From sequence record OZ035802.1: a stretch of DNA of 44,662 bases. The stretch is one strand, 5' to 3'. This document shows positions 2,251-44,662 of this stretch, in pieces; the first letter of the stretch is position 1; each line of letters opens with the position of its first letter. The notes beneath the pieces are model-generated. The model was given only the letters and a program-made list of their open reading frames with translations. It was not told the origin of the DNA and did no database searches. The translations under genes were made by a program, and so were the position numbers. Origin of the DNA: Vectrevirus T145P2.

Positions 2251-2383
2251 GCCCAGATAATAAGATAAATAATAGGTAATATATAGGTTAACCTAGGTTA
2301 TATAGGTATGCCTTAGTATGGGTGTACTCCTGTACACCCTATTCCTTACTTCCTTACTATATTTACATAATAGGAGAGAGACA

Positions 2384-2662
2384 ATGGCTAATGATTATAG
2401 TAGTCAACCATTAACAGGTAAGTCTAAGAGAAAGCAGGTACAACCTGTAAGTGAAGAACTAATGCTTCCGGTAATCCCAAAAGAGGAAGCTAGTAAGAAA
2501 AGCAATGTTGTTAATGATGCCACCAAATCAGGTAAACAGAAAGGGGCCATGGTGTGCCTTGAAGTGGACGGTGGTGTATTGAAGATTGCTATCGCGGTTG
2601 ATGGCAAAGAAGATTCAGAGTGGAAGTTAGTAACAGTGGAAACCCCTGTTACCCCAGTTTAA
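2384..2662 (+). CDS. hypothetical small protein, paralog A
   Basis: ATG after TAGGAGAGAG RBS; 92 aa; shares SGKQKGAMVxLE core and C-terminal VTP with the next ORF. Confidence 0.5.
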   Translation: MANDYSSQPLTGKSKRKQVQPVSEELMLPVIPKEEASKKSNVVNDATKSGKQKGAMVCLEVDGGVLKIAIAVDGKEDSEWKLVTVETPVTPV

Positions 2663-2679
2663 GAGAAGGAGGAGATTAC

Positions 2680-2967
2680 ATGGCTAAATATGGTGAAGGT
2701 TCTGTTACTGGTCAAGCTTTTCGAGTAAAAGCAGTACAAACTATTGCAACGGCAATTCCTATGCCTGTTGTTAAGGAAGCAGACCTTAAGAAGAAAGACC
2801 ACCCTATCAACATCAAACATTTATCAGGTAAACAGAAAGGTGCAATGGTTGCTCTTGAGAAAACTGACACAACCATGCATATTGCTGTTGCACGTGGCAG
2901 TGAACCAACAGACCCTTGGGATGTAACTGGTATGGAAATGGACGCTGTTACTCCAGCAGGGGATTAA
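2680..2967 (+). CDS. hypothetical small protein, paralog B
   Basis: ATG after AGAAGGAGGAG RBS; 95 aa; paralogous to 2384..2662. Confidence 0.5.
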   Translation: MAKYGEGSVTGQAFRVKAVQTIATAIPMPVVKEADLKKKDHPINIKHLSGKQKGAMVALEKTDTTMHIAVARGSEPTDPWDVTGMEMDAVTPAGD

Positions 2968-2969
2968 TA

Positions 2970-3314
2970 ATGCTTAACAAATACTTCAAGCGTAAAGAGT
3001 TCGCTTGCCGTTGTGGGTGCGGTACATCCACTGTTGATGCTGAATTACTGCAGGTAGTCACAGATGTGCGTGAGCACTTTGGTTCTCCTGTAGTTATCAC
3101 TTCGGGGCATCGCTGTGCTAAGCACAATGCTAATGTAGGAGGAGCTAAGAACTCCATGCATCTTACTGGTAAGGCTGCTGACATTAAAGTGTCTGGCATA
3201 TTGCCTTCTGAAGTGCATAAGTATCTTACTAGCAAATACCAAGGCAAGTATGGTATCGGTAAGTATAACTCCTTCACTCACATCGATGTACGGGATGGTT
3301 GTGCGCGATGGTAA
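2970..3314 (+). CDS. putative peptidoglycan hydrolase, peptidase M15-like (endolysin candidate)
   Basis: N-terminal KEFACRCGCG motif and SGHRCxxHN...HLxGxAAD...HID zinc-ligand pattern typical of the M15 (PF08291-like) family; ~114 aa; TAATAATG overlap with upstream gene. Confidence 0.6.
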   Translation: MLNKYFKRKEFACRCGCGTSTVDAELLQVVTDVREHFGSPVVITSGHRCAKHNANVGGAKNSMHLTGKAADIKVSGILPSEVHKYLTSKYQGKYGIGKYNSFTHIDVRDGCARW

Positions 3315-3439
3315 GATGTGTTGAATGGTGTGAGCGTATGGTTGCCCAAGCTGCCGAGGATGGCAACTATGATGACTGGAAGAACTACTCTGACTTGTTA
3401 GCTCAATGGAAAGGGAGATGCAATGAAAAAGCTGTTTAA
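3308..3439 (+). CDS. hypothetical small Cys-containing ORF (43 aa)
   Basis: ATGGTAA overlap with endolysin stop; below ORF-track size cut-off; weak. Confidence 0.25.
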   Translation: MVRCVEWCERMVAQAAEDGNYDDWKNYSDLLAQWKGRCNEKAV

Positions 3440-3572
3440 GTCTAAGAAGGTTGTAGGTGCACTGGTTGCACTTGTTATTGCTCTTGTTTCTGTAGGTCTT
3501 GGTGTAGACCTTGGCTCTGGCACGGAATCCTCTGTGACAGATGTGGTCTGCCAAGTGATTACCTGTGAATAA
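3423..3572 (+). CDS. small single-TMD protein (49 aa), holin/antiholin-like or N-terminal part of a spanin
   Basis: MKKLFKSKK then hydrophobic VVGALVALVIALVSVGLGV; inside lysis cassette. Confidence 0.35.
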   Translation: MKKLFKSKKVVGALVALVIALVSVGLGVDLGSGTESSVTDVVCQVITCE

Positions 3573-3786
3573 GTTCCTAGAAGTGCTGGCAGGTCTTATT
3601 GGCCTGCTTGTCTCTGCTAAGAAGAAACAAGAAGAGAAGGAGGCACAAAGTGAAGCGAATCATGCTAGCGACAATCCTGCTGATTGGTTCGCTGACCACT
3701 TCCGGGTGTCAGCAGGCGTTACCAGAGAAGGCAATGGTGAAACCTCTGAGGCCGACGCTGACGGCAGTTTACGAGGTGGACGATAA
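3565..3786 (+). CDS. candidate i-spanin-like ORF (short, atypical)
   Basis: GTG start; hydrophobic N-terminus FLEVLAGLIGLLVSA; overlaps the lipoprotein ORF in another frame. Confidence 0.3.
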   Translation: MNKFLEVLAGLIGLLVSAKKKQEEKEAQSEANHASDNPADWFADHFRVSAGVTREGNGETSEADADGSLRGGR

Positions 3787-3859
3787 GGTCTGCTTTAGTA
3801 AGCCTGACGCTACAAAATTAGGTTTGTATATTCTTTCGCTAGAACGCGGGTATAATTAA
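3650..3859 (+). CDS. candidate o-spanin (outer membrane lipoprotein, Rz1-like)
   Basis: AAGGAGG then GTG; signal peptide MKRIMLATILLIGSLTTSGC with lipobox Cys; Pro-rich mature part; starts inside the 3565..3786 ORF. Confidence 0.5.
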   Translation: MKRIMLATILLIGSLTTSGCQQALPEKAMVKPLRPTLTAVYEVDDKVCFSKPDATKLGLYILSLERGYN

Positions 3860-3888
3860 TACATAGTTTTATGTATCAGTGTCTTACG

Positions 3889-3913
3889 ATTTACTGGACA
3901 CTATAGAAGAGAT
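3889..3913 (+). promoter_or_regulatory. SP6-like phage promoter upstream of tailspike genes
   Basis: ATTTACTGGACACTATAGAAGAGAT. Confidence 0.6.
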
Positions 3914-3990
3914 AAGATAGTGCCGTTCTTTTGAGCGGCCTATTACTAGCCAATCTTCATAGGGAGGGTTGGGAAGTAATAGGAGGTCTA

Positions 3991-5430
3991 ATGGCTAAAA
4001 TTACCAAACCTGTCACAACTGGTATTATACATGAAGGTGGATTGCTGTCAGATTATCTAAAACAAGCATGGGATAACACCTTACACGCTGATAACTACTT
4101 TGTTAGTGTTAAAGATTTTGGTGCTAAGGGTGATGGCTCTGCCGATGATACTGCTGCATTCAAAGCTGCACTTGCTTCTGGTAAGAACGTGTATATCCCT
4201 GTAGGTATTTATATAATTAGTGAGACTTTGTATTTTAAGAATCAGGTTATAAAAGGTGGCGGCATAGCACCTGTCCCTAGTCTTGGTACAATCCTTGCAA
4301 TTTCACACAATGAGCCTGCATGGAAATATGATGAAAGCGCAGGTTACTCTATGGGTGGTTATTTAGGTGGGTTCTTCATAGATTATGGAGAGAACAAACC
4401 AGATAACTATGCAGGCAGAAAAGGCATAGATCTAGGTGATGACGACCAACAAGCATGGCCTTCTCAATTTATCATTGAGAACATCATTGTCCGTGGTGCA
4501 TACTTTGGTTTGCATGATGAAACAGGAGCATTCCAATACTCAATGCGCAATGTGGTTGCTATCAATTGCTGGGAGGGGTTCCGTAAGTTCACTGGAACTA
4601 CAGTCCTTATGGATACATGCTATGCGCTTAATTGCTATCAAGCATATAGACTGGCTAATGTTTATAATATGACAATGAATAACTGCGCCATGGATGGATG
4701 TAATGATATCCAAGGTTTACAGGCATTTGATATTACAAACTGCAAAGGTCTTGTGATAAATGGCATGTATAGTGAGAATTGTGAGATCCATCATAGCGGT
4801 AATGCTTCTATATTTATTCATGGAGATTCTACAGTAACAATCAACGGTTATGCCTTACACTCGCATAATGTCGTTGTTGATCCAGCATCTGGAAGTGAAG
4901 AAGCATACTTTCTTAGAGCGCACGACAGCTCTAGGGTCAATGTAGATGGAATCTTCTTCGGTGAGAACCTTAAATCTACTAGTATCTTCACCTACCCAAT
5001 TATGGCCTCTGGTGAGTCTAGAATTAAGCTAGGAACTACAGCACTTAAGGCATGGGTCGGTGCTAAGGGTGGTGCATCTATGGCTGCTGTTGGAGATAGT
5101 CTCATTGAATATGACAATACCGTATTTAACCCATCACTTACTGTAGGTTGGTGCAGTAATAATGGTGTTGTAGCTAAAGGGACACTAGTTGTAAACACAA
5201 CATTAGAACCTAATGCAGATTTAAATGCAGGAACTATACAATTAGTTGGTGACTATAAACCAAATAAAGGTGATGTTCTTACATATGGTTCTACTTTCGA
5301 TGTTCAATCATGTGCTATTATTCTGAAGCCACAAGGTGATAATAGTTGTAATGTTTACATTAAAAATCTAAGTGCAGGTAGTAGTGTTACACTTAACGGA
5401 ATATTGCACGTACAGGCAATTCGTAGGTAA
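3991..5430 (+). CDS. tailspike 1, right-handed beta-helix pectate-lyase-like depolymerase
   Basis: ATG after TAGGAGG; N-terminal VSVKDFGAKGDGSADDTAAFKAA motif typical of pectate-lyase-fold tailspikes; repetitive N/G/T-rich beta-helix composition. Confidence 0.7.
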   Translation: MAKITKPVTTGIIHEGGLLSDYLKQAWDNTLHADNYFVSVKDFGAKGDGSADDTAAFKAALASGKNVYIPVGIYIISETLYFKNQVIKGGGIAPVPSLGTILAISHNEPAWKYDESAGYSMGGYLGGFFIDYGENKPDNYAGRKGIDLGDDDQQAWPSQFIIENIIVRGAYFGLHDETGAFQYSMRNVVAINCWEGFRKFTGTTVLMDTCYALNCYQAYRLANVYNMTMNNCAMDGCNDIQGLQAFDITNCKGLVINGMYSENCEIHHSGNASIFIHGDSTVTINGYALHSHNVVVDPASGSEEAYFLRAHDSSRVNVDGIFFGENLKSTSIFTYPIMASGESRIKLGTTALKAWVGAKGGASMAAVGDSLIEYDNTVFNPSLTVGWCSNNGVVAKGTLVVNTTLEPNADLNAGTIQLVGDYKPNKGDVLTYGSTFDVQSCAIILKPQGDNSCNVYIKNLSAGSSVTLNGILHVQAIRR

Positions 5431-5514: not shown

Positions 5515-7950
5515 ATGATTCAAAGACTAGGTTCTTCATTAGTTAAATTCAAGAGTAAAATAGCAGGTGCAATCTGGCGTAACTTGGATGACAAGCTCAC
5601 CGAGGTTGTATCGCTTAAAGATTTTGGAGCCAAAGGTGATGGTAAGACAAACGACCAAGATGCAGTAAATGCAGCGATGGCTTCAGGTAAGAGAATTGAC
5701 GGTGCTGGTGCTACTTACAAAGTATCATCTTTACCTGATATGGAGCGATTCTATAACACCCGCTTCGTATGGGAACGTTTAGCAGGTCAACCTCTTTACT
5801 ATGTGAGTAAAGGTTTTATCAATGGTGAACTCTATAAAATCACGGATAACCCTTATTACAATGCTTGGCCTCAAGACAAAGCGTTTGTATATGAGAATGT
5901 GATATATGCACCCTACATGGGTAGCGACCGTCATGGCGTTAGTCGTCTGCATGTATCATGGGTTAAGTCTGGTGACGATGGTCAAACATGGTCTACTCCA
6001 GAGTGGCTAACTGATCTGCATCCAGATTACCCTACAGTGAACTATCATTGTATGAGTATGGGTGTATGTCGCAACCGTCTGTTTGCCATGATTGAAACAC
6101 GTACTTTAGCCAAGAACGCACTAACCAATTGTGCATTGTGGGATCGCCCTATGTCTCGTAGTCTGCATCTTACTGGTGGTATCACTAAGGCTGCAAATCA
6201 GAGATATGCAACAATCCATGTACCTGATCACGGACTATTCGTGGGCGATTTTGTTAACTTCTCTAATTCTGCGGTAACAGGTGTATCAGGTGATATGACT
6301 GTTGCAACGGTAATAGATAAGGACAACTTCACGGTTCTTACACCTAACCAGCAGACTTCAGATTTGAATAACGCTGGAAAGAGTTGGCACATGGGTACTT
6401 CTTTCCATAAGTCTCCATGGCGTAAGACAGATCTTGGTCTAATCCCTAGTGTCACAGAGGTGCATAGCTTTGCTACTATTGATAACAATGGCTTTGTTAT
6501 GGGCTATCATCAAGGTGATGTAGCTCCACGAGAAGTTGGTCTTTTCTACTTCCCTGATGCTTTCAATAGCCCATCTAATTATGTTCGTCGTCAGATACCA
6601 GCTGAGTATGAACCAGATGCGGCAGAGCCATGCATCAAGTACTATGACGGTGTATTATACCTTATCACTCGTGGTACTCGTGGCGACCGACTAGGAAGCT
6701 CTTTGCATCGTAGTAGAGATATAGGTCAGACTTGGGAGTCACTGAGATTTCCACATAATGTTCATCATACTACCTTACCTTTTGCTAAAGTAGGAGATGA
6801 CCTTATTATGTTTGGTTCAGAACGTGCAGAAAATGAATGGGAAGCAGGTGCACCAGATGATCGTTACAAGGCATCTTATCCTCGTACCTTCTATGCACGA
6901 TTGAATGTAAACAATTGGAATGCAGATGATATTGAATGGGTTAACATCACAGACCAAATCTATCAAGGTGACATTGTGAACTCTAGTGTAGGTGTAGGTT
7001 CTGTTGTAGTTAAAGACAGCTACATTTACTATATCTTTGGTGGTGAAAACCATTTCAACCCAATGACTTATGGTGACAACAAAGATAAAGACCCATTTAA
7101 AGGTCATGGACACCCTACTGATATATACTGCTATAAGATGCAGATTGCAAATGACAATCGTGTATCTCGTAAGTTTACATATGGTGCAACTCCTGGTCAG
7201 GCTATACCTACTTTCATGGGTACTGATGGAATACGAAATATCCCTGCACCTTTGTATTTCTCAGATAACATTGTTACAGAGGATACTAAAGTTGGACACT
7301 TAACACTTAAAGCAAGCACAAGTTCCAATATACGATCTGAAGTGCAGATGGAAGGTGAATATGGCTTTATTGGCAAGTCTGTTCCAAAGGACAACCCAAC
7401 TGGTCAACGTTTGATTATTTGTGGTGGAGAAGAGACTTCGTCATCTTCAGGTGCACAGATAACTTTGCACGGCTCTAATTCAAGTAATGCTAAGCGTATC
7501 ACTTATAACGGAAATGAGCACCTATTCCAAGGTGCACCAATCATGCCTGCTGTAGATAACCAGTTTGCTGCTGGTGGACCTAGTAACCGATTCACTACCA
7601 TCTACCTAGGTAGTGACCCTGTTACAACTTCAGATGCTGACCACAAGTACGGTATCTCTGGTATTAATACCAAGGTGTTAAAGGCTTGGAGCAGGGTTGG
7701 TTTTAAACAGTATGGTTTGAATAGTGAAGCAGAGAGGAATCTTGATAGCATACACTTCGGTGTCTTGGCTCAGGATATTGTAGCTGCTTTTGAAGCTGAA
7801 GGATTGGATGCCATTAAGTATGGAATTGTGTCCTTCGAAGAAGGTAGGTACGGTGTGAGATATAGTGAAGTTCTAATCCTAGAGGCTGCCTACACTCGCC
7901 ATCGTCTTGATAAATTAGAGGAGATGTATGCCGCTAATAAAATCAGTTAA
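5515..7950 (+). CDS. tailspike 2, endosialidase-like with C-terminal intramolecular chaperone domain
   Basis: 811 aa; two sialidase Asp-boxes (SGDDGQTW, SRDIGQTW); last ~105 aa resemble the autocleaving chaperone domain of endosialidases with SDADHK Ser-Lys motif; N-terminal SLKDFGAKGDG. Confidence 0.8.
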   Translation: MIQRLGSSLVKFKSKIAGAIWRNLDDKLTEVVSLKDFGAKGDGKTNDQDAVNAAMASGKRIDGAGATYKVSSLPDMERFYNTRFVWERLAGQPLYYVSKGFINGELYKITDNPYYNAWPQDKAFVYENVIYAPYMGSDRHGVSRLHVSWVKSGDDGQTWSTPEWLTDLHPDYPTVNYHCMSMGVCRNRLFAMIETRTLAKNALTNCALWDRPMSRSLHLTGGITKAANQRYATIHVPDHGLFVGDFVNFSNSAVTGVSGDMTVATVIDKDNFTVLTPNQQTSDLNNAGKSWHMGTSFHKSPWRKTDLGLIPSVTEVHSFATIDNNGFVMGYHQGDVAPREVGLFYFPDAFNSPSNYVRRQIPAEYEPDAAEPCIKYYDGVLYLITRGTRGDRLGSSLHRSRDIGQTWESLRFPHNVHHTTLPFAKVGDDLIMFGSERAENEWEAGAPDDRYKASYPRTFYARLNVNNWNADDIEWVNITDQIYQGDIVNSSVGVGSVVVKDSYIYYIFGGENHFNPMTYGDNKDKDPFKGHGHPTDIYCYKMQIANDNRVSRKFTYGATPGQAIPTFMGTDGIRNIPAPLYFSDNIVTEDTKVGHLTLKASTSSNIRSEVQMEGEYGFIGKSVPKDNPTGQRLIICGGEETSSSSGAQITLHGSNSSNAKRITYNGNEHLFQGAPIMPAVDNQFAAGGPSNRFTTIYLGSDPVTTSDADHKYGISGINTKVLKAWSRVGFKQYGLNSEAERNLDSIHFGVLAQDIVAAFEAEGLDAIKYGIVSFEEGRYGVRYSEVLILEAAYTRHRLDKLEEMYAANKIS

Positions 7951-8520: not shown

Positions 8521-8967
8521 GGCCATTCCTGAGCATTTGACAGGGTGAGCGTGGGTGGGCTATCTGTTCGTTTCGCTCCACTACGTTACGCTACACTCAC
8601 CGCGCTTGTGTATCCTTGGTATAATCCTGATGGATGGCTTAGGTTAGCCTTAGTGGGATACCTTAGTTAAAGCCTTAGTGCTTAGCTTAGTATCAACTTA
8701 GTAGTGTACCTTAGTAAGTCTTAGTGTCTTCTCTTAGTGATTGCATAGCTAAAGCTATAAGATGCAATTAGGTCGCGGTCGGTAGACCGCTAATAAGAAG
8801 TAATAGTAATAAGATGCAGTAGGAGGAACACCAGAAACCTAGCCAACCTAGTCTATCCTAGCTCTGTATCTATTGCTTTCCTTAGTCTCACATGTTAGAC
8901 AACCTAGGTTTACCTTAGCAGTTGTGACAGGTATCACATAAATAATCTATCTTAGTGCGATTTAGTG

Positions 8968-8996
8968 TTGACGTAGGCAGTTAACAGGTATACATT
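8968..8996 (+). promoter_or_regulatory. candidate host sigma70 early promoter
   Basis: TTGACG - 17 bp - TACATT. Confidence 0.4.
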
Positions 8997-36475: not shown

Positions 36476-37221
36476 TGGCTATAGGTTCAGCCGTTATGGC
36501 TGGTATGTCTTCTATTGGTAGTATGTTTGCAGGTAGCGGTGCAGCAGCCGCTGCTGGTGGTACTGCCGCAGCAGCAGGAGGGACAGCCGCCGCAGGTGGC
36601 GGAGGTTTGCTTGGCTCCCTTGGTAGTTTCTTAGGAGGTTCTTCTGCTGGCTTCTCTAATGCAGGACTGCTTAGTGCAGGTATGCAAGGTCTTGGTCTTC
36701 TAGGCAATCTTTTTGGTGGAAGTGATGAAGCCAAAGCTATGAAGAAAGCTCAGGAGGAGCAATGGCGGCAGCAGTTAATTGCTACACAAGAAGCATATAA
36801 GACAGTGGCAGATGCAGAACGCTCTGCTGCTAAACAGTATCATGCGGATGCAATAAGCAATCAGGCTTCACTACTGCAGCAGAGAGCACAGGTTGCATTG
36901 CTTGCTGGTGCTACTGGTACTGGTGGTAACTCTGTGTCTTCTATGCTGAATGACTTAGCAGCAGAAGGCGGAAGGAACCAGAGTACAATTATCGATAACT
37001 ATGAGAATCAGAAGATTAACTTCACAAACCAGCTTAAGTCCATCCAACGTGGTGGTCAGATGCAGATGCGTGAGTTTAAGAAACCTTCTGCCGTGAGCAC
37101 CTTGGTGCAAGGTATACCGAGTCTGGCATCTGCCTATGTAACAGGTAGTAAGTCCGGCATGGCTTTAGGTAAAGCTTTAACTGATTCTCGTACATATTCA
37201 TCTGGAACAAGAGGTATTTAA
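36475..37221 (+). CDS. internal virion protein (gp14-like)
   Basis: Gly/Ala-rich hydrophobic N-terminal region; TAATG overlap. Confidence 0.6.
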   Translation: MAIGSAVMAGMSSIGSMFAGSGAAAAAGGTAAAAGGTAAAGGGGLLGSLGSFLGGSSAGFSNAGLLSAGMQGLGLLGNLFGGSDEAKAMKKAQEEQWRQQLIATQEAYKTVADAERSAAKQYHADAISNQASLLQQRAQVALLAGATGTGGNSVSSMLNDLAAEGGRNQSTIIDNYENQKINFTNQLKSIQRGGQMQMREFKKPSAVSTLVQGIPSLASAYVTGSKSGMALGKALTDSRTYSSGTRGI

Positions 37222-40169
37222 TGGCAATTGAGCGACAAGCAGTACAAGGTCTGCCACAAGTGCAGGCCACTTCTCCTAATGTCATGACCTTTGCACCTCA
37301 GCGAGTTGGAGGTGTGGAGGCTGGCGTAGCTTCTACCTCCGGTAGTCGATTTATCGAAGACCTTATTCGAGCAGCCAGTAGTGTAGCTGATGTAACCACT
37401 GGTATCCTTAATCAAAAGATTGAGGAAGATAAGGTTGTTCAAATGGAACGGGCATATAACGGATTAATGCCTTCTGAGGATGCAACTCGTGGTGGCGCTC
37501 GTGCTAACATGCTTGTCAAAGCTCAACTGCTAGCTAATGATGAAGCAGCACGAATGAAAGACATGGCTACTCGTTTCCAAGGAACGGATGACGAGTGGAC
37601 ACAGCTTATGGTTGACTCTCGTAATGAGATGCAGAATAAGCTGTTCCAGCAATACCCTGAGTTGCAAGGTGACAAAGATACTATGCGTATGGTCACTAAT
37701 GTCTTCCAAGAACAGCAGCCTCAGATTTGGGCTACACGAACCCAGCATAAACTTGACCGTGAACAAGCAGACCGTGAGGATACCTTTGACGGGCGAGTGG
37801 CTTCTACTTGGGATTCTAATATTGACCCTGAAGCCTCTGGATATGCTTTACAGGAACGAATCCGCGAAGGTCTTACTCAAGGATTACTACCTGAACAGAT
37901 GCACAAGAAGTTAGTCCAGCGAGCAATTTCACTTGCACAAGGCGGTGATGTTAGCATGGCTGAAGCCCTGAAGTATGTGAAGGACGATAAGGGTGTTTCT
38001 GTTTATGCTAAGAATCCACAGCTTATCACAGCCATCACTAGTGGTAATGCAGTTTGGGCTAGGAATAATGTAGCTGATGTAACTCGTATGTCTTTCGAAG
38101 TTAAAGAATCATACCTTGCAGGCGATTTAACTGATGAAGAATTGTTGGAACGAGCACAGCACATTAATAATCTGACAGGTAACTCTGTCTTCTCTAACCC
38201 AGAACTAGAGGCACTGATGCGCCAACGAGCTAAGCAGAATGCAGGGCTAGGTGCAATGCAGGATATGCGCCGTGAGCTTTACTCCGACCGCCTGACTGGC
38301 TTCCAAGGTAAGACTGATAAAGAGAAGAAGGCTTACATTGATGTTATCAAACAAGATAGCCAACTTTATGCAGACCAGCAAATCAAACAACGTGGCTTGG
38401 ACCCTTACAGTCAAGAGGCTGAAGCTATTCGTGGTGCAGTGGAAGTGCAGCGCCTACAATTCATGAACTCCAAAGGCTTAGTGGATGATACCTTTGAGTC
38501 TCGTATCAAAGCCATGGAATCTATGCTATCGCCTGAGCACTTTGCCAAGGGCGAACCACAAGAGTTGATGACTATTCGCCAGTTGTGGGAACAGTTGCCA
38601 GAAGAGAGCCGAGGTGTCTTTGGTGACACGGTGAATGGCTACATGGATAACTACAACACTGCACTACAAATGGGAGAGACACCTTTGCAGGCTGCAAGGT
38701 TTGCGCGTGAAGCACAGCAGAAATTCTCTCGTACTGAGAAGGAAACCAAGAAGTTCAACTCAGCTATTGGAGAGGCACTGGATGAGGTGTCTGGTGCTGG
38801 CTGGTTTGATGGTAAAACCGAAGTGTCAGACTTAGGTAAAGCTATTGCGGAAGAAGAGTTACGAGCTAAGGCCAATATGTTGTGGTCTAGTGGTATGCGT
38901 AACATGGATTCCATCAAGAAGGCTTTAATTACTTGGGGCAATAAACGCTACACTCAATCAGAGGATGCAAAGACTTCCGGTGGCTATTTCATTAAAGGTG
39001 ATTACACTTCTGCATCTGATATGCTTATGTCAGTTGGGAAAGGCGTAAACCCTACCGATGTACCTCTGGCGCTTGGTAGGTATGTAGAAACACAGATGCC
39101 AGAATTGAAGAAGGAGCTTCAAGAGTGGGAAACTAAAGATGATATATACATTGATTACAATGAACAGAAAGGAACTTTTGTGATTCGTGCTGGTGCAGCA
39201 GGTCGCCCTCTTTCTGGAGTAATCCCTGTAACCTCTTTAGATACTACTTCACTACTAGATTCTGCCTATCAGAAGAAAGTAGAGGAACGAGATAAAGGCG
39301 AGTATGTTCACCCGTATCGTACAGATATTGGTGCACAAGAGCCTATGCCAGCTAAACCAACTGCCAAAGATATTGGTAAATTTGGACTAGCTAACTTCCT
39401 CATGTCTTCTGCTTTTGCTTCTGGTGAGAATCTGCCTTCTAACTTCGAGATTAACTATCGAGGTAATATGCAACAATTCTATGACAAGCTAGCTATGGAT
39501 GAGAATAAAGATAAAGTTGGCTTTAATAAGGCAACTGGAACCTTTACTCCATATAAAGACGCTCACGGTGAGTCTATCGGTTACGGTCATTTCTTAACGG
39601 AAGAAGAGAAGCGAAACGGGTATATTAAGATTGGCGATGAACTAGTTCCCTATCGAGGGTCTATGTCTCAGCTTACAGAGAGCAAGGCTCGCGCCCTTAT
39701 GGAGCAAGATGCTAAGAAGCATGTGCCTCCTACTCGTGACTGGAAGATTCCGTTTGACCAGATGCATCCTGCACAGCAACGTGGCTTGATGGATTTAACC
39801 TACAATTTAGGTAAAGGTGGAATCCAGAACTCACCGCGTGCTCTTGCTGCATTCAAAGCTGGTAAGCTTACGGAGGGTTTTATCGAAATGCTGGGCACTG
39901 CATCAAGTGAAGGTAAGCGTATTCCTGGCCTACTGAAGCGACGCGCTGAGGCATACAATATGGCATCTGCTGGTGGTGTGCCTAAGATTACCGAAGTGGA
40001 GACTCGTGAAGATGGCTCCATGTGGGTTAGGTTTGGTGGACCTATGCCAGCAGGTTCTGTCTCGGCATGGACTCATAAACGTATTGGCGCGGATGGTTGG
40101 TATCAGGTTTATGAGGCTGCACCTACAAAGTTAGCTAAAGGTTCTAAGGTAGGTAAAGTTAAGTTGTAG
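37221..40169 (+). CDS. internal virion protein with C-terminal T4-lysozyme-like peptidoglycan hydrolase domain
   Basis: 982 aa; C-terminal region (~39520..39970) KDAHGESIGYGHFLTEEE...LMDLTYNLGKGG resembles a GH24 phage lysozyme. Confidence 0.75.
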   Translation: MAIERQAVQGLPQVQATSPNVMTFAPQRVGGVEAGVASTSGSRFIEDLIRAASSVADVTTGILNQKIEEDKVVQMERAYNGLMPSEDATRGGARANMLVKAQLLANDEAARMKDMATRFQGTDDEWTQLMVDSRNEMQNKLFQQYPELQGDKDTMRMVTNVFQEQQPQIWATRTQHKLDREQADREDTFDGRVASTWDSNIDPEASGYALQERIREGLTQGLLPEQMHKKLVQRAISLAQGGDVSMAEALKYVKDDKGVSVYAKNPQLITAITSGNAVWARNNVADVTRMSFEVKESYLAGDLTDEELLERAQHINNLTGNSVFSNPELEALMRQRAKQNAGLGAMQDMRRELYSDRLTGFQGKTDKEKKAYIDVIKQDSQLYADQQIKQRGLDPYSQEAEAIRGAVEVQRLQFMNSKGLVDDTFESRIKAMESMLSPEHFAKGEPQELMTIRQLWEQLPEESRGVFGDTVNGYMDNYNTALQMGETPLQAARFAREAQQKFSRTEKETKKFNSAIGEALDEVSGAGWFDGKTEVSDLGKAIAEEELRAKANMLWSSGMRNMDSIKKALITWGNKRYTQSEDAKTSGGYFIKGDYTSASDMLMSVGKGVNPTDVPLALGRYVETQMPELKKELQEWETKDDIYIDYNEQKGTFVIRAGAAGRPLSGVIPVTSLDTTSLLDSAYQKKVEERDKGEYVHPYRTDIGAQEPMPAKPTAKDIGKFGLANFLMSSAFASGENLPSNFEINYRGNMQQFYDKLAMDENKDKVGFNKATGTFTPYKDAHGESIGYGHFLTEEEKRNGYIKIGDELVPYRGSMSQLTESKARALMEQDAKKHVPPTRDWKIPFDQMHPAQQRGLMDLTYNLGKGGIQNSPRALAAFKAGKLTEGFIEMLGTASSEGKRIPGLLKRRAEAYNMASAGGVPKITEVETREDGSMWVRFGGPMPAGSVSAWTHKRIGADGWYQVYEAAPTKLAKGSKVGKVKL

Positions 40170-43200: not shown

Positions 43201-43542
43201 TTATCGCCTAAAGGGTTGGCCTTTGGTGCAATGGGTATGATGAGTACAACTGCTGTATTTAGTCTAGGTGGAGATTTCTTAGGTGGCCTAGGTGTTCTAC
43301 CTTCTGAGTTAGTACAATCCCGTTATGAGGCTGGCTTTCAGACTAAGGGGTTGATAGACCAAATACCACTAGTAGGTGTTGGTCAAGATGCATATCGTTT
43401 AGCAGATTCTATAACTAGATACGCAGAGGGTGATACAGAAGGTGTAGATGTGGCACGTAGGGCTTTACGCTTAGTGCCTCTAGCTAATGTAATAGGAATC
43501 CAGAACGCATTGCGTTATGGCTTAGATGAACTGGAGGATTAA
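40234..43542 (+). CDS. large internal virion protein (gp16-like ejectosome component)
   Basis: 1102 aa; GGAGG RBS; largely helical; last of three internal virion genes. Confidence 0.75.
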   Translation: MEQDIKTNWAGYVQSTPEPFSIEAAPVSAPTIRQRNELQEQVLEAKADADILGAVGAAFQNEWLAFGGKRWYDRATADFTPQPDFEIQPEQREALRFKYGTDMMQTITEGVRSEDELNFRIQNADEDLERNKRIAQAGWVGSVATIGAAVLDPVGWVASIPTGGAAKVGLVGRAVRGAIAAGVSNAAIESVLVQGDMTRDLDDIMVALGSGMAMGGVIGAVARGRATKLSEQGDDRAASIVRSADAGDRYVRAVADDSIGAMRVKGEEVLTEGAFDVSSKGEDLLKTLQREGNAIDMTPRRWAGTLSALGTVVHSSQDASVRGLGARLFESPQGLGMQKASASLMQNTNLNRLKSADMNRFNDGFDLWLKENNINPVAGHTNSHYVQQYNEKVWEAVRIGMDESTPKSIRMAAEGQQAMYREALALRQRSGEAGFEKVKADDKYMPDIFDSMKARRQFSMHDKEDIIELFSRAYQNGSRKVPKEVADDIARAQVNRVADATLTGQLSFEKAMSGQTKAEYEALMRKAGFSDEEIEKMVEALDNKETRDNISNRAKMSLGLDVTQEYNGIRMRDFMNTNVEELTDNYMKEAAGGAALARQGFSTYQAALNAIDLVERNARNAAKDTKAHAQFEAESAKIRQSEPDYKKAQEKIEELKKRLKLKEKDEAAGLAIDEEIRQMREGLRLIMGKSIDSNPQDLSTKMLRRGRDITGVLRLGQMGFAQLGELANFMGEFGIAATTMALGKQFRFTSKALRNGDGFFRDKNLAEVERMVGYIGEDNWLTTKGARPDEFGDVTTVRGMMAHFDQSMNSIRRAQTNLSLFRMAQGSLERMTNRQIALSFIDHLEGKKIIPQKKLEELGLTQEFMTNLQKHYDANSKGSGLLGFDTMPYAMGETLANAIRRKSGLIIQRNFIGDEGIWMNKALGKTFAQLKSFSLVSGEKQFGRGIRHDKIGLAKKTAYGFALGSIVYAAKAYVNSIGREDQDEYLEEKLSPKGLAFGAMGMMSTTAVFSLGGDFLGGLGVLPSELVQSRYEAGFQTKGLIDQIPLVGVGQDAYRLADSITRYAEGDTEGVDVARRALRLVPLANVIGIQNALRYGLDELED

Positions 43543-44504
43543 TGAGTTATACTTTCACAGAACATATAGCCAACGGTACGCAAGTAACCTATCCCTTTAG
43601 CTTTGCTGGTAGGGATAAAGGTTATCTTCGTGCCTCAGATGTGATAGTGGAGTCTCTTCAAGGTAGCACTTGGATTGAGGTTACATCTGGCTGGCAACTA
43701 ACTGGCACGCACCAGATTACTTTTGATGTAGCACCAGTTGTAGGTTTGAAGTTCCGTATTCGAAGGGAAGTACAAAAGGAGTATCCATACGCTGAGTTTG
43801 ACCGTGGTGTTACCTTGGATATGAAGTCTTTAAATGGTTCTTTCATTCATATGCTGGAGATTACACAGGAGTTACTTGACGGGTTTTATCCAGAAGGATA
43901 CTTCATTAAACAGAATGTAAGCTGGGGCGGCAATAAGATTACTGATTTGGCTGATGGCACAAATCCTGGAGATGCAGTAAATAAAGGGCAGCTTGATGCC
44001 ATCGACAAGAAGCATACAGATTGGAACGCCAAACAGGACATTGAGATTGCTGGCCTTAAGGCTGGTATGACTTCTGGTATTGCGCACAGAACTGTTCCTT
44101 GGTACACGATAGCCCAAGGTGGTGAGATTTCCGTAAAACCACCTTATGAATTTCAAGATGCACTAGTTTTCCTTAATGGGGTATTGCAGCACCAAATTGT
44201 AGGCGCATACTCTATAAGCAACAACACTATCACTTTCGCAGAGCCGCTTGTGGCGGGTACAGAGGTGTATGTGCTGATTGGTAGTCGTGTGGCTACATCT
44301 GAACCTAATATTCAGTTAGAGTTGAACTTTGACTTAGTAGAAGGCCAACAAGTAGTACAGATTGGCTCTGCATTTAAGTACATTGAGGTCTACCTTGATG
44401 GATTATTACAACCTAAACTTGCTTATCAGGTAGACGGTGACATTGTTACTTTCTCAGAAAGAGTACCAGAATGCCGGATGACTGCTAAGATTATCACAGC
44501 ATAA
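43542..44504 (+). CDS. tail fiber N-terminal-domain-like adaptor protein
   Basis: 320 aa; N-terminus resembles the tail-attachment domain of T7 gp17; too short for a full fiber, so probably docks the two tailspikes. Confidence 0.8.
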   Translation: MSYTFTEHIANGTQVTYPFSFAGRDKGYLRASDVIVESLQGSTWIEVTSGWQLTGTHQITFDVAPVVGLKFRIRREVQKEYPYAEFDRGVTLDMKSLNGSFIHMLEITQELLDGFYPEGYFIKQNVSWGGNKITDLADGTNPGDAVNKGQLDAIDKKHTDWNAKQDIEIAGLKAGMTSGIAHRTVPWYTIAQGGEISVKPPYEFQDALVFLNGVLQHQIVGAYSISNNTITFAEPLVAGTEVYVLIGSRVATSEPNIQLELNFDLVEGQQVVQIGSAFKYIEVYLDGLLQPKLAYQVDGDIVTFSERVPECRMTAKIITA

Positions 44505-44513
44505 GGGGGTGGG

Positions 44514-44662
44514 ATGATTAACTCCGAACTGGTAGATAGTGGTGTGAAGCTTGCGCCACCTGCACTCGTATCAGGTGGGTACTTCCTCGGTATCAGTTGG
44601 GATAATTGGGTGTTAATAGCAACATTCATTTATACCGTGTTGCAAATTGGGGACTGGTTTTA
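44514..44662 (+). CDS. T7-type class II holin (gp17.5-like), truncated by window end
   Basis: GGGGGTGGG RBS; MINSELVDSGVKLAPPALV then hydrophobic FLGISWDNWVLIATFIYTVLQI; joined to base 1 it ends at TAA 44..46 as a 65-aa protein. Confidence 0.65.
   Translation, partial: MINSELVDSGVKLAPPALVSGGYFLGISWDNWVLIATFIYTVLQIGDWF

Follow-up and report, generated by a model that had tools for sequence, protein, structure and literature searches.

Split lysis genes and a candidate small two-component spanin in a K1-5-like Vectrevirus genome

Introduction

The sequence analyzed here, referred to as the window, is the 44,662-nt stretch of Vectrevirus T145P2 in record OZ035802.1. Its lysis genes lie in two places, with a holin gene before the small terminase gene and, after the large terminase gene, a peptidase gene trailed by several very small genes. 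The locus raises the question of which of these small products form the spanin that disrupts the outer membrane. Summer et al. 2007 and Kongari et al. 2018 established the overlapped class of two-component spanins, and the latter also catalogued the lysis genes of K1-5-like phages. A preliminary description of the window had listed a T7-type holin, an M15 peptidase, two tiny open reading frames (ORFs), a lipoprotein spanin and tailspikes, and all of these ORFs are present where they had been placed. However, that inventory missed a further overlapping gene, orf73. The split arrangement had also been presented as a curiosity; the arrangement itself stands, but the annotations of K1-5, SP6, and LL11 already show it, Kongari et al. 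2018 list it, and it has drawn comment in the literature for the Pantoea phage Nufs112. The layout is thus one described for K1-5/SP6-like coliphages and is not new.

Results

Layout of the lysis genes. The window represents a K1-5-like Vectrevirus genome in circularly permuted form, with 96% identity to K1-5, LL11, and AAPEc6 over the lysis region, and its artificial join splits the holin gene. The relevant features are as follows.

44514-44662, + strand: T7-family (class II) holin, 5′ part; Pfam PF10746 Phage_holin_2_2, E = 1.5e-27
1-46, + strand: 3′ end of the holin gene (Y-NKFKIWREKRERTQ-stop), read directly from the sequence
2226-2248, + strand: site resembling K1-5/SP6-type phage promoters, where the large terminase gene ends; 3 mismatches to consensus
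2381-2662 and 2680-2967, + strand: two tandem paralogous small genes upstream of the endolysin gene and co-transcribed with it
2970-3314, + strand: endolysin, single-domain zinc metallopeptidase M15A, 114 aa; PF08291 Peptidase_M15_3, E = 6.7e-34
3308-3439, + strand: orf43, small soluble Cys/Trp-containing protein, 43 aa from ATG; PHROG 1312, E = 2e-18
3423-3572, + strand: tm49, predicted bitopic inner-membrane protein, 49 aa, one strong transmembrane domain (TMD)
3565-3786, + strand: orf73, GTG-initiated, 73 aa; PHROG 9219, E = 4e-32
3650-3859, + strand: lipo69, predicted lipoprotein of o-spanin type, 69 aa; PHROG 8971 'Rz-like spanin', E = 4e-39
3889-3911, + strand: consensus K1-5-type phage promoter, perfect match ATTTACTGGACACTATAGAAGAG
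3991-5430: first tailspike
5515-7950: second tailspike

Counted across the join, the peptidase gene starts 3118 nt from the start of the holin gene. The lysis functions are therefore split physically and also by transcription unit, as promoter-like sites at 2226-2248 and 3889-3911 flank the endolysin/spanin unit. Using a consensus taken from the site at 3889-3911, eight K1-5-type promoter-like sites were identified in the window, where 0 were expected by chance. Transcription of the endolysin/spanin unit probably starts at the upstream site, and the downstream one is predicted to start the tailspike unit, delimiting the lysis unit on that side; the two tailspike genes lie downstream of the lipoprotein gene, as had been described. 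The tandem paralogs ahead of the endolysin gene share 35% identity with each other and match PHROG 2725 (E = 5e-38 and 1e-43); Pfam gave no hit for either one. Their database label is 'acetyl-CoA acetyltransferase'.

Essentially the same cassette is found in K1-5, K1E, and SP6 (Molineuxvirinae; K1-5 genes 38, 43, 44, and 45), which have the same order of genes, the same overlaps and the same promoters on either side, without material difference in the lysis genes. The M15, orf43, and tm49 products are 100% identical to those of K1-5 and lipo69 is 96% identical, with 96% nucleotide identity across the region; the first tailspike differs. The region is almost certainly the lysis cassette of this phage as known from K1-5.

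Holin and endolysin. Once joined across the window ends, the holin gene encodes 64 aa, scoring 95.5 bits against PF10746 (cut-off, 25.4) and differing from K1-5 gp38 at one residue (phmmer E = 2.4e-43). A T7 gp17.5 probe also matched from 44520 to the join (E = 4e-6). The gene directly follows a tail fibre-like gene (43542-44504), and its 3′ end overlaps the start of the small terminase gene (GTG at position 30) by 17 nt, an overlap identical in the K1-5 annotation, giving the order tail fibre/adaptor, holin, small terminase. By sequence the product belongs to the T7-family class II holins (Phage_holin_2_2). The Pfam match and the synteny bear out the earlier placement of a T7-type holin some 3 kb upstream, across the join and in the gp17.5 position.

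The endolysin covers the entire PF08291 profile (positions 1 to 108; 116.7 bits against a cut-off of 23.2) and matches PHROG 894 'endolysin' (E = 7e-46). Zinc-ligand motifs are present as SxHxxGxAxD (S62, H64, G67, A69, D71) and FxH (F102-T-H104), with H64, D71, and H104 as the predicted ligands; both align to the active-site stretch of 1LBU, the nearest solved relative, and the motifs agree with those described for LysPM1 (PMC13461873). The protein shares 75.7% identity with the M15 peptidase of Proteus phage PM116 and lacks an N-terminal hydrophobic segment. In the Proteus podophage Homer, a 116-aa Peptidase_M15_3 endolysin is muralytic and Zn dependent (PMC13461873). Likeness to LysPM1 and to the M15A endolysins cited in the same paper supports the prediction that the window protein degrades peptidoglycan. 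The wall hydrolase had been proposed to be an M15 metallopeptidase placed after the large terminase rather than a gp3.5-type amidase, and the PF08291 match, together with the lack of a gp3.5 homolog, agrees with this. Searches of the window for T7 gp3.5 and gp18.5 homologs found none, a negative taken as supportive only; the annotation of K1-5 likewise contains neither a gp3.5 or gp18.5 homolog nor an amidase.

orf43 and tm49. The ATG of orf43 overlaps the endolysin stop codon. This first tiny ORF exists as described earlier, but the 46-aa extent given for it corresponds to a start at TTG 3299, as opposed to 43 aa from the ATG. It is kept in most relatives, distant ones included, and is broken by a stop codon in LL11 and in locus L003. 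Natural in-frame fusions of orf43 to tm49 occur in P0155 and Proteus phage Pm5460, and orf43 probably works together with tm49. Neither orf43 nor orf73 is annotated in the K1-5 RefSeq record, and no Pfam match was obtained for orf43, orf73, or lipo69.

The second tiny ORF was confirmed as a 49-aa protein with a TMD, at 3423-3572. Its Kyte-Doolittle score over 19 residues is 2.76, and family members have a median of 4 K/R residues N-terminal to the TMD and 0 C-terminal to it, predicting the canonical N-in/C-out topology; the orf43::tm49 fusions are consistent with a cytoplasmic N terminus. The remaining periplasmic tail is 21 aa long and acidic, with an invariant CxxxxC. The family comprises 87 clusters, all from one phage clade of ∼45-kb genomes (SP6-like), and the only homologs beyond it were found in Vibrio phages VP4 and ICP3, in the slot of T7 Rz/Rz1 and beside an unrelated lipoprotein. 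Labels for tm49 conflict, being 'holin' in RefSeq and PHROG 4712 and 'i-spanin' in LL11, SP6, and Kongari 2018.

The preliminary description had suggested that this protein could be a second holin or antiholin. The TMD stands, and a small single-TMD protein that is encoded in a lysis cassette and labeled 'holin' in two databases might modulate the T7-type holin as a pinholin, antiholin, or second holin; across the clade it accompanies the T7-type holin, as expected of an antiholin. The slot directly upstream of orf73 is, moreover, filled in outgroup loci by unrelated small holin-like ORFs with one or two TMDs. Holins typically carry a charged cytoplasmic C-terminal tail. The tm49 protein has one TMD and no charged cytoplasmic domain, its short C terminus being acidic and periplasmic. 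It has no Pfam match, characterized holins included, and the holin labels rest on no experiment. Translational coupling to the spanin genes is always present. In VP4 and ICP3, which encode a T7-type holin elsewhere in the genome, the homolog occupies the spanin slot; this makes tm49 a better candidate for a spanin partner in the inner membrane than for a second holin. PP99 and Nufs112, two distant relatives, also keep the T7-type holin, and tm49 is therefore no replacement for it. A holin or antiholin role is thus rather unlikely, and the assignment leans toward a spanin-associated rather than holin-like protein, at somewhat short of even chances.

The overlapped pair orf73 and lipo69. The orf73 gene overlaps the last 8 nt of tm49, to which it is stop/start coupled, and 137 nt of lipo69, which lies in the +1 frame; no recognizable Shine-Dalgarno sequence precedes its GTG. 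It is intact in 23 of 23 close relatives. Outside the overlap, diversity at the three codon positions is 0.20/0.05/0.34 (Fisher p = 2e-4, position 2 versus 3), a pattern that identifies orf73 as a real gene under purifying selection. The family contains 127 clusters and at least 278 representatives, and residues Q28, P38, W41, H45, and F46 are invariant among 46 diverse members. The protein is predicted to open with an amphipathic/hydrophobic helix, to continue with a basic/charged one, and to end in a disordered tail after the invariant P..WF..HF motif. An AF2 model gave helices at 3-36 and 38-45 and a disordered tail and, because of its low confidence (mean pLDDT, 61), was used for secondary structure alone.

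The lipo69 gene starts with GTG after a strong AAGGAGG, in the context expected of an o-spanin gene, overlapping orf73 and lying 77 nt past tm49. The signal peptide ends in TTSG immediately before the lipobox Cys, the N terminus being MKRIMLATILLIGSLTTSG followed by C-Q, with T rather than L at -3; the +2 residue is not Asp, so there is no inner-membrane retention signal. The lipobox Cys (C20) is invariant in 40 homologs, as is C48 in the family, a periplasmic Cys of the kind sought in o-spanins. When both strands of the whole genome were scanned for lipobox ORFs, lipo69 was the only one. The mature protein of 49 to 50 aa has a flexible linker followed by a compact domain of a beta-hairpin and a helix (AF2 pLDDT of 93 to 96 for residues 31 to 60). 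Acceptance of a lipo69-type protein by LipoP is given in the supplement to Kongari 2018, where the K1-5 ortholog is listed as an o-spanin. These features mark lipo69 as a predicted outer-membrane lipoprotein of o-spanin type, and with the lipobox and the PHROG 8971 match they uphold the lipoprotein spanin reported after the endolysin.

A different function would be superinfection exclusion or receptor masking, as by T5 Llp- or Cor-like lipoproteins. The tailspike genes lie directly downstream, and a small outer-membrane lipoprotein with a compact fold departs from the unstructured, proline-rich Rz1. However, across diverse phages lipo69 accompanies endolysins and small membrane proteins and not receptor-binding proteins, it always belongs to an overlapped gene pair, the signature spanin architecture, and it is the sole spanin-type candidate in the genome. 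Foldseek found no relative of the model among solved structures (best E = 6.2) and only family members in BFVD. No link to T5 Llp or another known lipoprotein emerged from these searches. A role of lipo69 outside lysis is accordingly very improbable.

Conservation of the pair across phages. All orf73-family genes examined, from close and distant phage loci and from nine metagenomic loci (L039, L044, L045, L046, L050, L051, L053, L054, and L055), overlap a lipo69-family lipoprotein gene in the +1 frame by 101 to 143 nt. Nine complete outgroup loci and the truncated scaffold L047 have orf73 and lipo69 and lack tm49, the orf73 match in L047 being weak (E = 0.0023); orf43 is likewise missing from outgroup loci. 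The adjoining endolysin varies among four types: M15, transglycosylase-like, GH108, and Amidase_3. Because the overlap with the lipoprotein gene is constant beside four endolysin types, orf73 and lipo69 are read as a core two-component spanin. The candidate interacting regions of tm49, orf73, and lipo69 are nearly invariant. The otherwise unexpected invariance of the lipo69 signal peptide at L10, L11, and G13 is accounted for by W41 and F42 of orf73 in the other frame, which adds to the evidence that orf73 is a real gene. A single recombinant was seen, L022, with its breakpoint inside the overlap; it is uninformative for covariation.

Some properties of orf73 count against it as an inner-membrane partner. 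A classical i-spanin is recognized by a strong N-terminal TMD, and known i-spanins touch the o-spanin via their C termini, unlike the disordered tail of orf73. Its Kyte-Doolittle score over 19 residues is 1.25, below the threshold of 1.6, which is reached by 3% of the close family and 25% of the wide family. The longest uncharged run is 12 residues (family median, 9), and one K/R precedes the hydrophobic stretch against four after it; by the positive-inside rule, the conserved domain would be cytoplasmic. The C-terminal tail varies among relatives, and the summed periplasmic length of orf73 and lipo69, about 100 residues, is short for a spanin.

The published alternative pairs tm49 as i-spanin with lipo69 as o-spanin in a 'separated' architecture, orf73 being accessory or a dispensable overprinted gene. 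In K1-5, K1E, SP6, and LL11, the i-spanin named by Kongari et al. 2018 and by the Center for Phage Technology is tm49 and not orf73. Its strong TMD and N-in/C-out orientation give the canonical i-spanin topology, its two invariant periplasmic Cys with the one of lipo69 parallel the pattern of Rz (two) and Rz1 (one), and only 77 nt separate the two genes. VP4 and ICP3 also pair a tm49 homolog with a lipoprotein, in the Rz/Rz1 slot and with no orf73. Against this, the 21 periplasmic residues of tm49 and the 49 to 50 of mature lipo69 sum to about 70, short of the bridging length expected with an i-spanin, and the curation notes in Kongari 2018 on tm49 read 'Too small?' and 'Too short'. The nine complete outgroup loci keep lipo69 and orf73 without tm49, and the purifying selection on orf73 and its invariant motif are at odds with a dispensable gene. 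In UAB_Phi78, a phage that also has tm49, the same authors picked the orf73 homolog as i-spanin. A spanin made of tm49 and lipo69 is therefore unlikely, and the published i-spanin assignment for the SP6/K1-5 clade is probably incomplete. From the comparative sequence evidence, it is reasonably likely that orf73 and lipo69 form the functional core of an atypically small two-component spanin.

Two database proteins bear on a link between tm49 and orf73. The 157-aa P0378 looked like a fusion of the two but is an artefact, a TAG stop codon separating two genes in the DNA. The 95-aa P0343 is a true single ORF with a TMD preceding the orf73 domain; because the tm49 profile matches its N terminus weakly (E = 0.024), it is a lead and not proof of such a fusion.

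Discussion

Overall, the window quite likely encodes a K1-5/SP6-type late lysis apparatus with orf73 and lipo69 as spanin core and tm49 and orf43 as tentative partners. By homology, the T7-family holin would be translated from the long late mRNA that also encodes tail, internal-virion, and terminase proteins, and would build up in the inner membrane before opening holes at a set time. The M15A peptidase, a soluble protein with no export signal, would be expressed from a different unit, delimited by promoters and located downstream of the large terminase gene, and would exit via the holin holes and cleave peptidoglycan cross-links. Comparative genomics suggests that the outer membrane would then be breached by a small envelope complex from the last genes of the endolysin unit, with lipo69 anchored to the outer membrane by lipid and orf73 as the inner partner showing its charged helix and P..WF..HF motif. 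More tentatively, tm49 may be a clade-specific inner-membrane anchor or co-subunit, possibly offsetting the weak membrane anchor of orf73, and orf43 a cytoplasmic accessory of tm49.

The apparatus resembles that of T7 in its homologous holin, the position of that gene before the small terminase gene, and the three steps of holin, endolysin, and outer-membrane disruption. T7 differs in having its gp3.5 amidase among the DNA metabolism genes, whereas the window has an M15A peptidase after the large terminase gene. T7 gp18.5/18.7 are embedded and lie between the terminase genes, whereas the window spanin genes are non-homologous, overlapped, and elsewhere, and the window has an additional 49-aa membrane protein.

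With overlapped spanins such as P2 LysB/LysC, the window genes share a lipoprotein gene that begins in the +1 frame inside the gene of a helical charged protein, an N-terminal hydrophobic segment in the inner protein, a lysis-cassette setting, and a periplasmic Cys in the lipoprotein. The window partners are, in contrast, very small (73 and 69 aa), and the anchor of the inner one is weakly hydrophobic and in the family often amphipathic. Instead of C-terminal coiled coils, orf73 has the conserved P..WF..HF and then a disordered tail, and lipo69 has a compact folded beta-beta-alpha domain in the AF2 model.

Among T7-like phages of Vibrio, the VP4 family of Kongari 2018 has a 'mini' spanin pair of the separated type. 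In VP4 and ICP3 the i-spanin candidate is a tm49 homolog of 47 aa (HMM E = 2.8e-8) that shares the basic N terminus, TMD, GVDL motif, and CxxxxC, and its gene is stop/start coupled to that of a lipoprotein of about 65 aa. The differences are that this lipoprotein is unrelated to lipo69, that an orf73 homolog is absent, and that the pair lies between the terminase genes.

The literature searched contained no three-component spanin and no experiments with the K1-5, SP6, or Vectrevirus versions of these genes. That the SP6/K1-5-like spanin is a three-protein 'split' machine of tm49 anchor, orf73, and lipo69, with the orf73/lipo69 family forming a mini-spanin class, is an unlikely reading. If true, i-spanin functions would be shared between the tm49 anchor and the coupled orf73, whose P..WF..HF motif would be lipoprotein binding or membrane active. 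The inner partner of the orf73/lipo69 family would then not be a classical integral membrane protein, and it may need an upstream small membrane protein or release through holin holes.

The three small lysis genes are annotated inconsistently across a widely used group of therapeutic phages, which includes K1-5, K1E, SP6, and many Klebsiella, Proteus, and Salmonella phages, and orf73 is a conserved gene that is often unannotated or mislabeled in public records. The role of orf73 and tm49 bears on a very small type of spanin and on spanins whose inner partner has no true transmembrane anchor, and it thus matters for models of spanin mechanism and for automated annotation of lysis genes.

Organization of the lysis genes

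Across positions 2300 to 4000, the window shared 96% identity with Escherichia phages LL11, AAPEc6, and K1-5, and this stretch matched 123 phage records, which indicates that the window is the full genome, circularly permuted, of a K1-5-like Vectrevirus (Autographiviridae, Molineuxvirinae). The contig was cut open within the holin gene at an arbitrary position (44662/1) and, as the K1-5 genome is linear, this join is an assembly artefact and no biological feature. Read across the join (44514-44662 plus 1-46), the holin has 64 aa, differs from K1-5 gp38 by one residue, and matches Pfam Phage_holin_2_2 (E value, 1.5e-27) and a T7 gp17.5 probe. The features from the end of the large terminase gene onward are as follows.

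2226-2248, K1-5-type promoter-like site with 3 mismatches, at the end of the large terminase gene
2970-3314, endolysin of the Peptidase_M15_3 type, 114 aa (Pfam E value, 6.7e-34; PHROG "endolysin" E value, 7e-46)
3308-3439, orf43, 43-aa Cys/Trp-containing ORF between endolysin and tm49
3423-3572, tm49, 49-aa protein with a single transmembrane domain (TMD)
3565-3786, orf73, 73 codons, GTG start overlapping the tm49 stop (GTGAATAA)
3650-3859, lipo69, 69-aa lipoprotein behind a strong AAGGAGG
3889-3911, K1-5-type promoter, perfect consensus match

The preliminary description had proposed that lysis functions are split, with a T7-type holin about 3 kb upstream of the peptidase and spanin genes. 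Every ORF it named was found at its place, and 3118 nt separate the holin and peptidase starts when counted across the join. Its interpretation was largely right, although the layout was already known and orf73 had been overlooked. The split is real and already described: the K1-5 RefSeq gene order is holin, terminases, endolysin, "holin" (tm49), and "Rz-like spanin"; the LL11 genome announcement lists "a class-II holin, endolysin ... and a separated spanin pair"; K1-5, K1E, and SP6 were grouped as a separated spanin family (Kongari et al. 2018); and the Nufs112 paper remarks explicitly that lysis genes in such phages form no single contiguous cassette. Eight sites in the window fit the K1-5-type promoter consensus, with none expected by chance. 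The sites at 2226-2248 and 3889-3911 enclose two small paralogous genes, the endolysin gene, orf43, tm49, orf73, and lipo69, while the holin gene belongs to the preceding long late unit; thus, the split extends to transcription units.

Between the promoter-like site and the first gene of this unit lies a GC-rich hairpin with an 8-bp stem (2320-2339; GGGTGTAC-TCCT-GTACACCC), which could be an RNA processing or stabilizing element or a weak terminator. The tandem paralogs (2381-2662 and 2680-2967; 93 and 95 aa, 35% identical) are both publicly labeled "acetyl-CoA acetyltransferase." They had no match in a Pfam search and are much smaller than any thiolase, and the name is probably a propagated misannotation; distant relatives carry a single copy immediately 5′ of the endolysin gene. 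Downstream, the first tailspike (3991-5430; 479 aa) is a pectate-lyase-like beta-helix that differs from the K5 lyase of K1-5 and whose distal part has Escherichia phage Mt1B1_P10 (99.7%) and Vectrevirus T145P2 as its only matches, and the second (5515-7950) is a full K1 endosialidase.

The view that the wall hydrolase is of the M15 type, in place of a T7-style gp3.5 amidase, was borne out by the Peptidase_M15_3 match and by probes for T7 gp3.5 and gp18.5, which found no homologs in the window; an amidase is likewise absent from the K1-5 annotation. The protein carries the M15A motifs SxHxxGxAxD (H64, D71) and FxH (H104), and its closest solved structure is the Zn D-Ala-D-Ala carboxypeptidase of Streptomyces albus (1LBU). 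It has no N-terminal hydrophobic segment, and its export therefore depends on a holin. Proteus podophage Homer encodes a single-domain Peptidase_M15_3 endolysin of 116 aa that was shown to be muralytic and Zn dependent (PMC13461873); the M15 peptidase of PM116, a different Proteus phage, is 75.7% identical to the window protein. The internal virion protein (982 aa; 37221-40169) ends in a Phage_lysozyme domain (PF00959; 39471-40169; E value, 3.3e-11), a second muralytic activity in the genome, presumably serving entry rather than lysis.

An overlooked gene overlaps the lipoprotein gene

Comparative evidence indicates that orf73, which shares 137 nt with lipo69 in the +1 frame, is a genuine gene. 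It was unbroken, with an unchanged start, in 23/23 distinct close relatives. Over its nonoverlapping stretch (3573-3649), pairwise diversity averaged 0.20/0.05/0.34 at the three codon positions, a pattern like those of the endolysin (0.15/0.11/0.43) and tm49 (0.15/0.12/0.46); 6 of 25 second positions were variable, against 20 of 26 third positions (Fisher P = 2e-4). DNA variation beneath the lipoprotein signal peptide also tracks the orf73 frame. The product matches PHROG 9219 (E value, 4e-32), labeled as unknown function, and its family comprises 127 cluster representatives of 61 to 77 aa in a 5.8-billion-protein set, or 278 representatives at 50% clustering in an exhaustive HMMER scan. Across 46 diverse members, Q28, P38, W41, H45, and F46 are invariant and make a P..WF..HF motif following a basic/charged helix. 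Residues L10, L11, and G13, midway through the lipoprotein signal peptide, are unusually invariant because this motif is encoded in the other frame.

In SP6 (AY288927.2), gene 48 (1664-1861), annotated as "o-spanin," is actually the orf73 frame (MAGLLGLL...PADWFADHF...) and not the lipoprotein; the updated GenBank record leaves the true lipoprotein frame unannotated.

The probable partner of the lipoprotein

Of the 41 phage-type loci examined, both close and distant, only L039 lacked the complete orf43-tm49-orf73-lipo69 module. The set covers Gajwadongvirus PP99 and MR4, Pantoea Nufs112, Erwinia VL73, an Edwardsiella phage, and phages of Proteus and Klebsiella, and several of its loci encode an unrelated transglycosylase-like endolysin of 150 to 185 aa. 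In nine outgroup loci (L039, L044, L045, L046, L050, L051, L053, L054, and L055), an orf73-family gene overlaps a +1-frame lipo69-family lipoprotein gene, tm49 and orf43 are absent, and the adjoining endolysin is GH108, Amidase_3, or M15-like. The truncated scaffold L047 holds both genes, with a weak orf73 match (E value, 0.0023). In every locus examined, the overlap was 101 to 143 nt with a +1 offset, and orf73 was stop/start-coupled to an upstream small membrane protein gene (overlap, 0 to 20 nt; L039, 2-nt gap). Such constant overlapped linkage in lysis cassettes with interchangeable endolysins is a two-component spanin signature, and it favors orf73 over tm49 as the obligatory partner of the lipoprotein. 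In LL11, as annotated by the Center for Phage Technology, tm49 is named "putative I-spanin" and the lipoprotein "putative O-spanin," while in UAB_Phi78 the orf73 homolog was chosen as an overlapped i-spanin (Kongari et al. 2018). As UAB_Phi78 has tm49 as well, published assignments are inconsistent within one o-spanin family.

Pairs of this type adjoin four unrelated endolysin types (M15 peptidase, transglycosylase-like, GH108 with a PG-binding domain, and Amidase_3; L025, L026, L029, L024, and L030 versus the window, with L045 and L053), a clear case of a fixed outer-membrane module with nonorthologous endolysin replacement around it. A natural recombinant, IMGVR_UViG_3300029310_000051 (2407-2698), has its breakpoint within the gene overlap: the endolysin, orf43, tm49, and first two-thirds of orf73 are of K1-5/K1E type, and the orf73 tail and mature lipoprotein are of the L017-L020 type.

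The N-terminal segment of orf73 is weakly hydrophobic (Kyte-Doolittle 19-residue score, 1.25; family median, 1.2 to 1.3), with scores of ≥1.6 in 3% of close and 25% of distant members, a median longest uncharged run of 9 residues, and four K/R after versus one before the hydrophobic stretch. For comparison, tm49 scored 2.76 and lambda Rz 2.63. The T7-type holin scores only 1.33, so a low score is compatible with membrane insertion. The AF2 model of orf73, which is of low confidence, shows one long helix at residues 3-36, a second and shorter one spanning the motif at 38-45, and a tail without order. In a marine relative (P0343, from L050), encoded immediately 3′ of an M15-like endolysin gene, a genuine 19-residue TMD and then "GWDLGDT" precede the orf73 domain, consistent with a periplasmic position for that domain; this relative resembles tm49 only weakly (E value, 0.024).

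The sole lipobox ORF in the genome is lipo69. Its AF2 model has a confident compact domain (pLDDT, 93 to 96 over residues 31 to 60) after a flexible linker, with a beta-hairpin (40-49) containing the invariant Cys48 and a helix (51-65), unlike the unstructured, proline-rich lambda Rz1. No solved structure resembling the model was found, which argues against an Llp-type exclusion protein.

Possible roles of tm49 and orf43

The tm49 protein is a canonical N-in/C-out bitopic protein (family median K/R, 4 before and 0 after the TMD) with an acidic 21-aa periplasmic tail ending in an invariant CxxxxC. Its 87 clusters are restricted to the ∼45-kb clade of the window phage, except for the Vibrio T7-like phages VP4/ICP3/N4, which carry a clear 47-aa homolog (GVDL motif, CxxxxC; HMM E value, 2.8e-8). 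There its gene occupies exactly the T7 18.5/18.7 slot, with the small terminase gene on one side and the large one on the other, and is coupled to that of an unrelated 65-aa lipoprotein; there is no orf73 homolog, and a T7-type holin is annotated elsewhere in the genome. In VP4 (NC_007149), the two genes lie at 8629-8969 and the tm49 homolog is unannotated. The homolog is kept in 29 Vibrio cholerae phage records (ICP3, N4, and JSF series), variously labeled hypothetical, "holin," or "DNA packaging protein."

As previously suggested, tm49 may be a second holin or antiholin, and in outgroups the position 5′ of orf73 is indeed taken by small, unrelated TMD proteins of holin-like character. However, tm49 has no holin homology in Pfam and none of the charged cytoplasmic C-terminal domain that holins carry. 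PP99 and Nufs112 also retain a T7-type holin, so tm49 is no substitute for it; in PP99 (KY250034; 7350-7607), the homolog (phmmer E value, 6.5e-6) lies in an unannotated gap between the tail fibre adaptor and small terminase genes. Given the VP4/ICP3 slot, this retention, and the non-holin tail, we lean towards a spanin-associated inner-membrane role for tm49, as anchor or co-subunit, and the outer-membrane complex of SP6-like phages could be three-part, tm49 included.

The orf43 gene is conserved but missing from the K1-5 RefSeq annotation; in LL11 and L003 a stop codon breaks its frame, so it is probably dispensable. Natural in-frame fusions of orf43 to the tm49 N terminus (P0155; Proteus phage Pm5460) are consistent with a cytoplasmic tm49 N terminus and indicate a functional tie between the two.

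Proposed lysis pathway

By homology, the T7-type holin would trigger first, and the cytoplasmic M15A peptidase would then be released to degrade peptidoglycan; both steps are well grounded. From gene linkage, the orf73/lipo69 pair, probably with tm49, would then disrupt or fuse the outer membrane, as a putative complex of tentative composition and topology. The identity of the inner spanin partner is inconsistently annotated, and there is a modest chance of a split or three-component mini-spanin.
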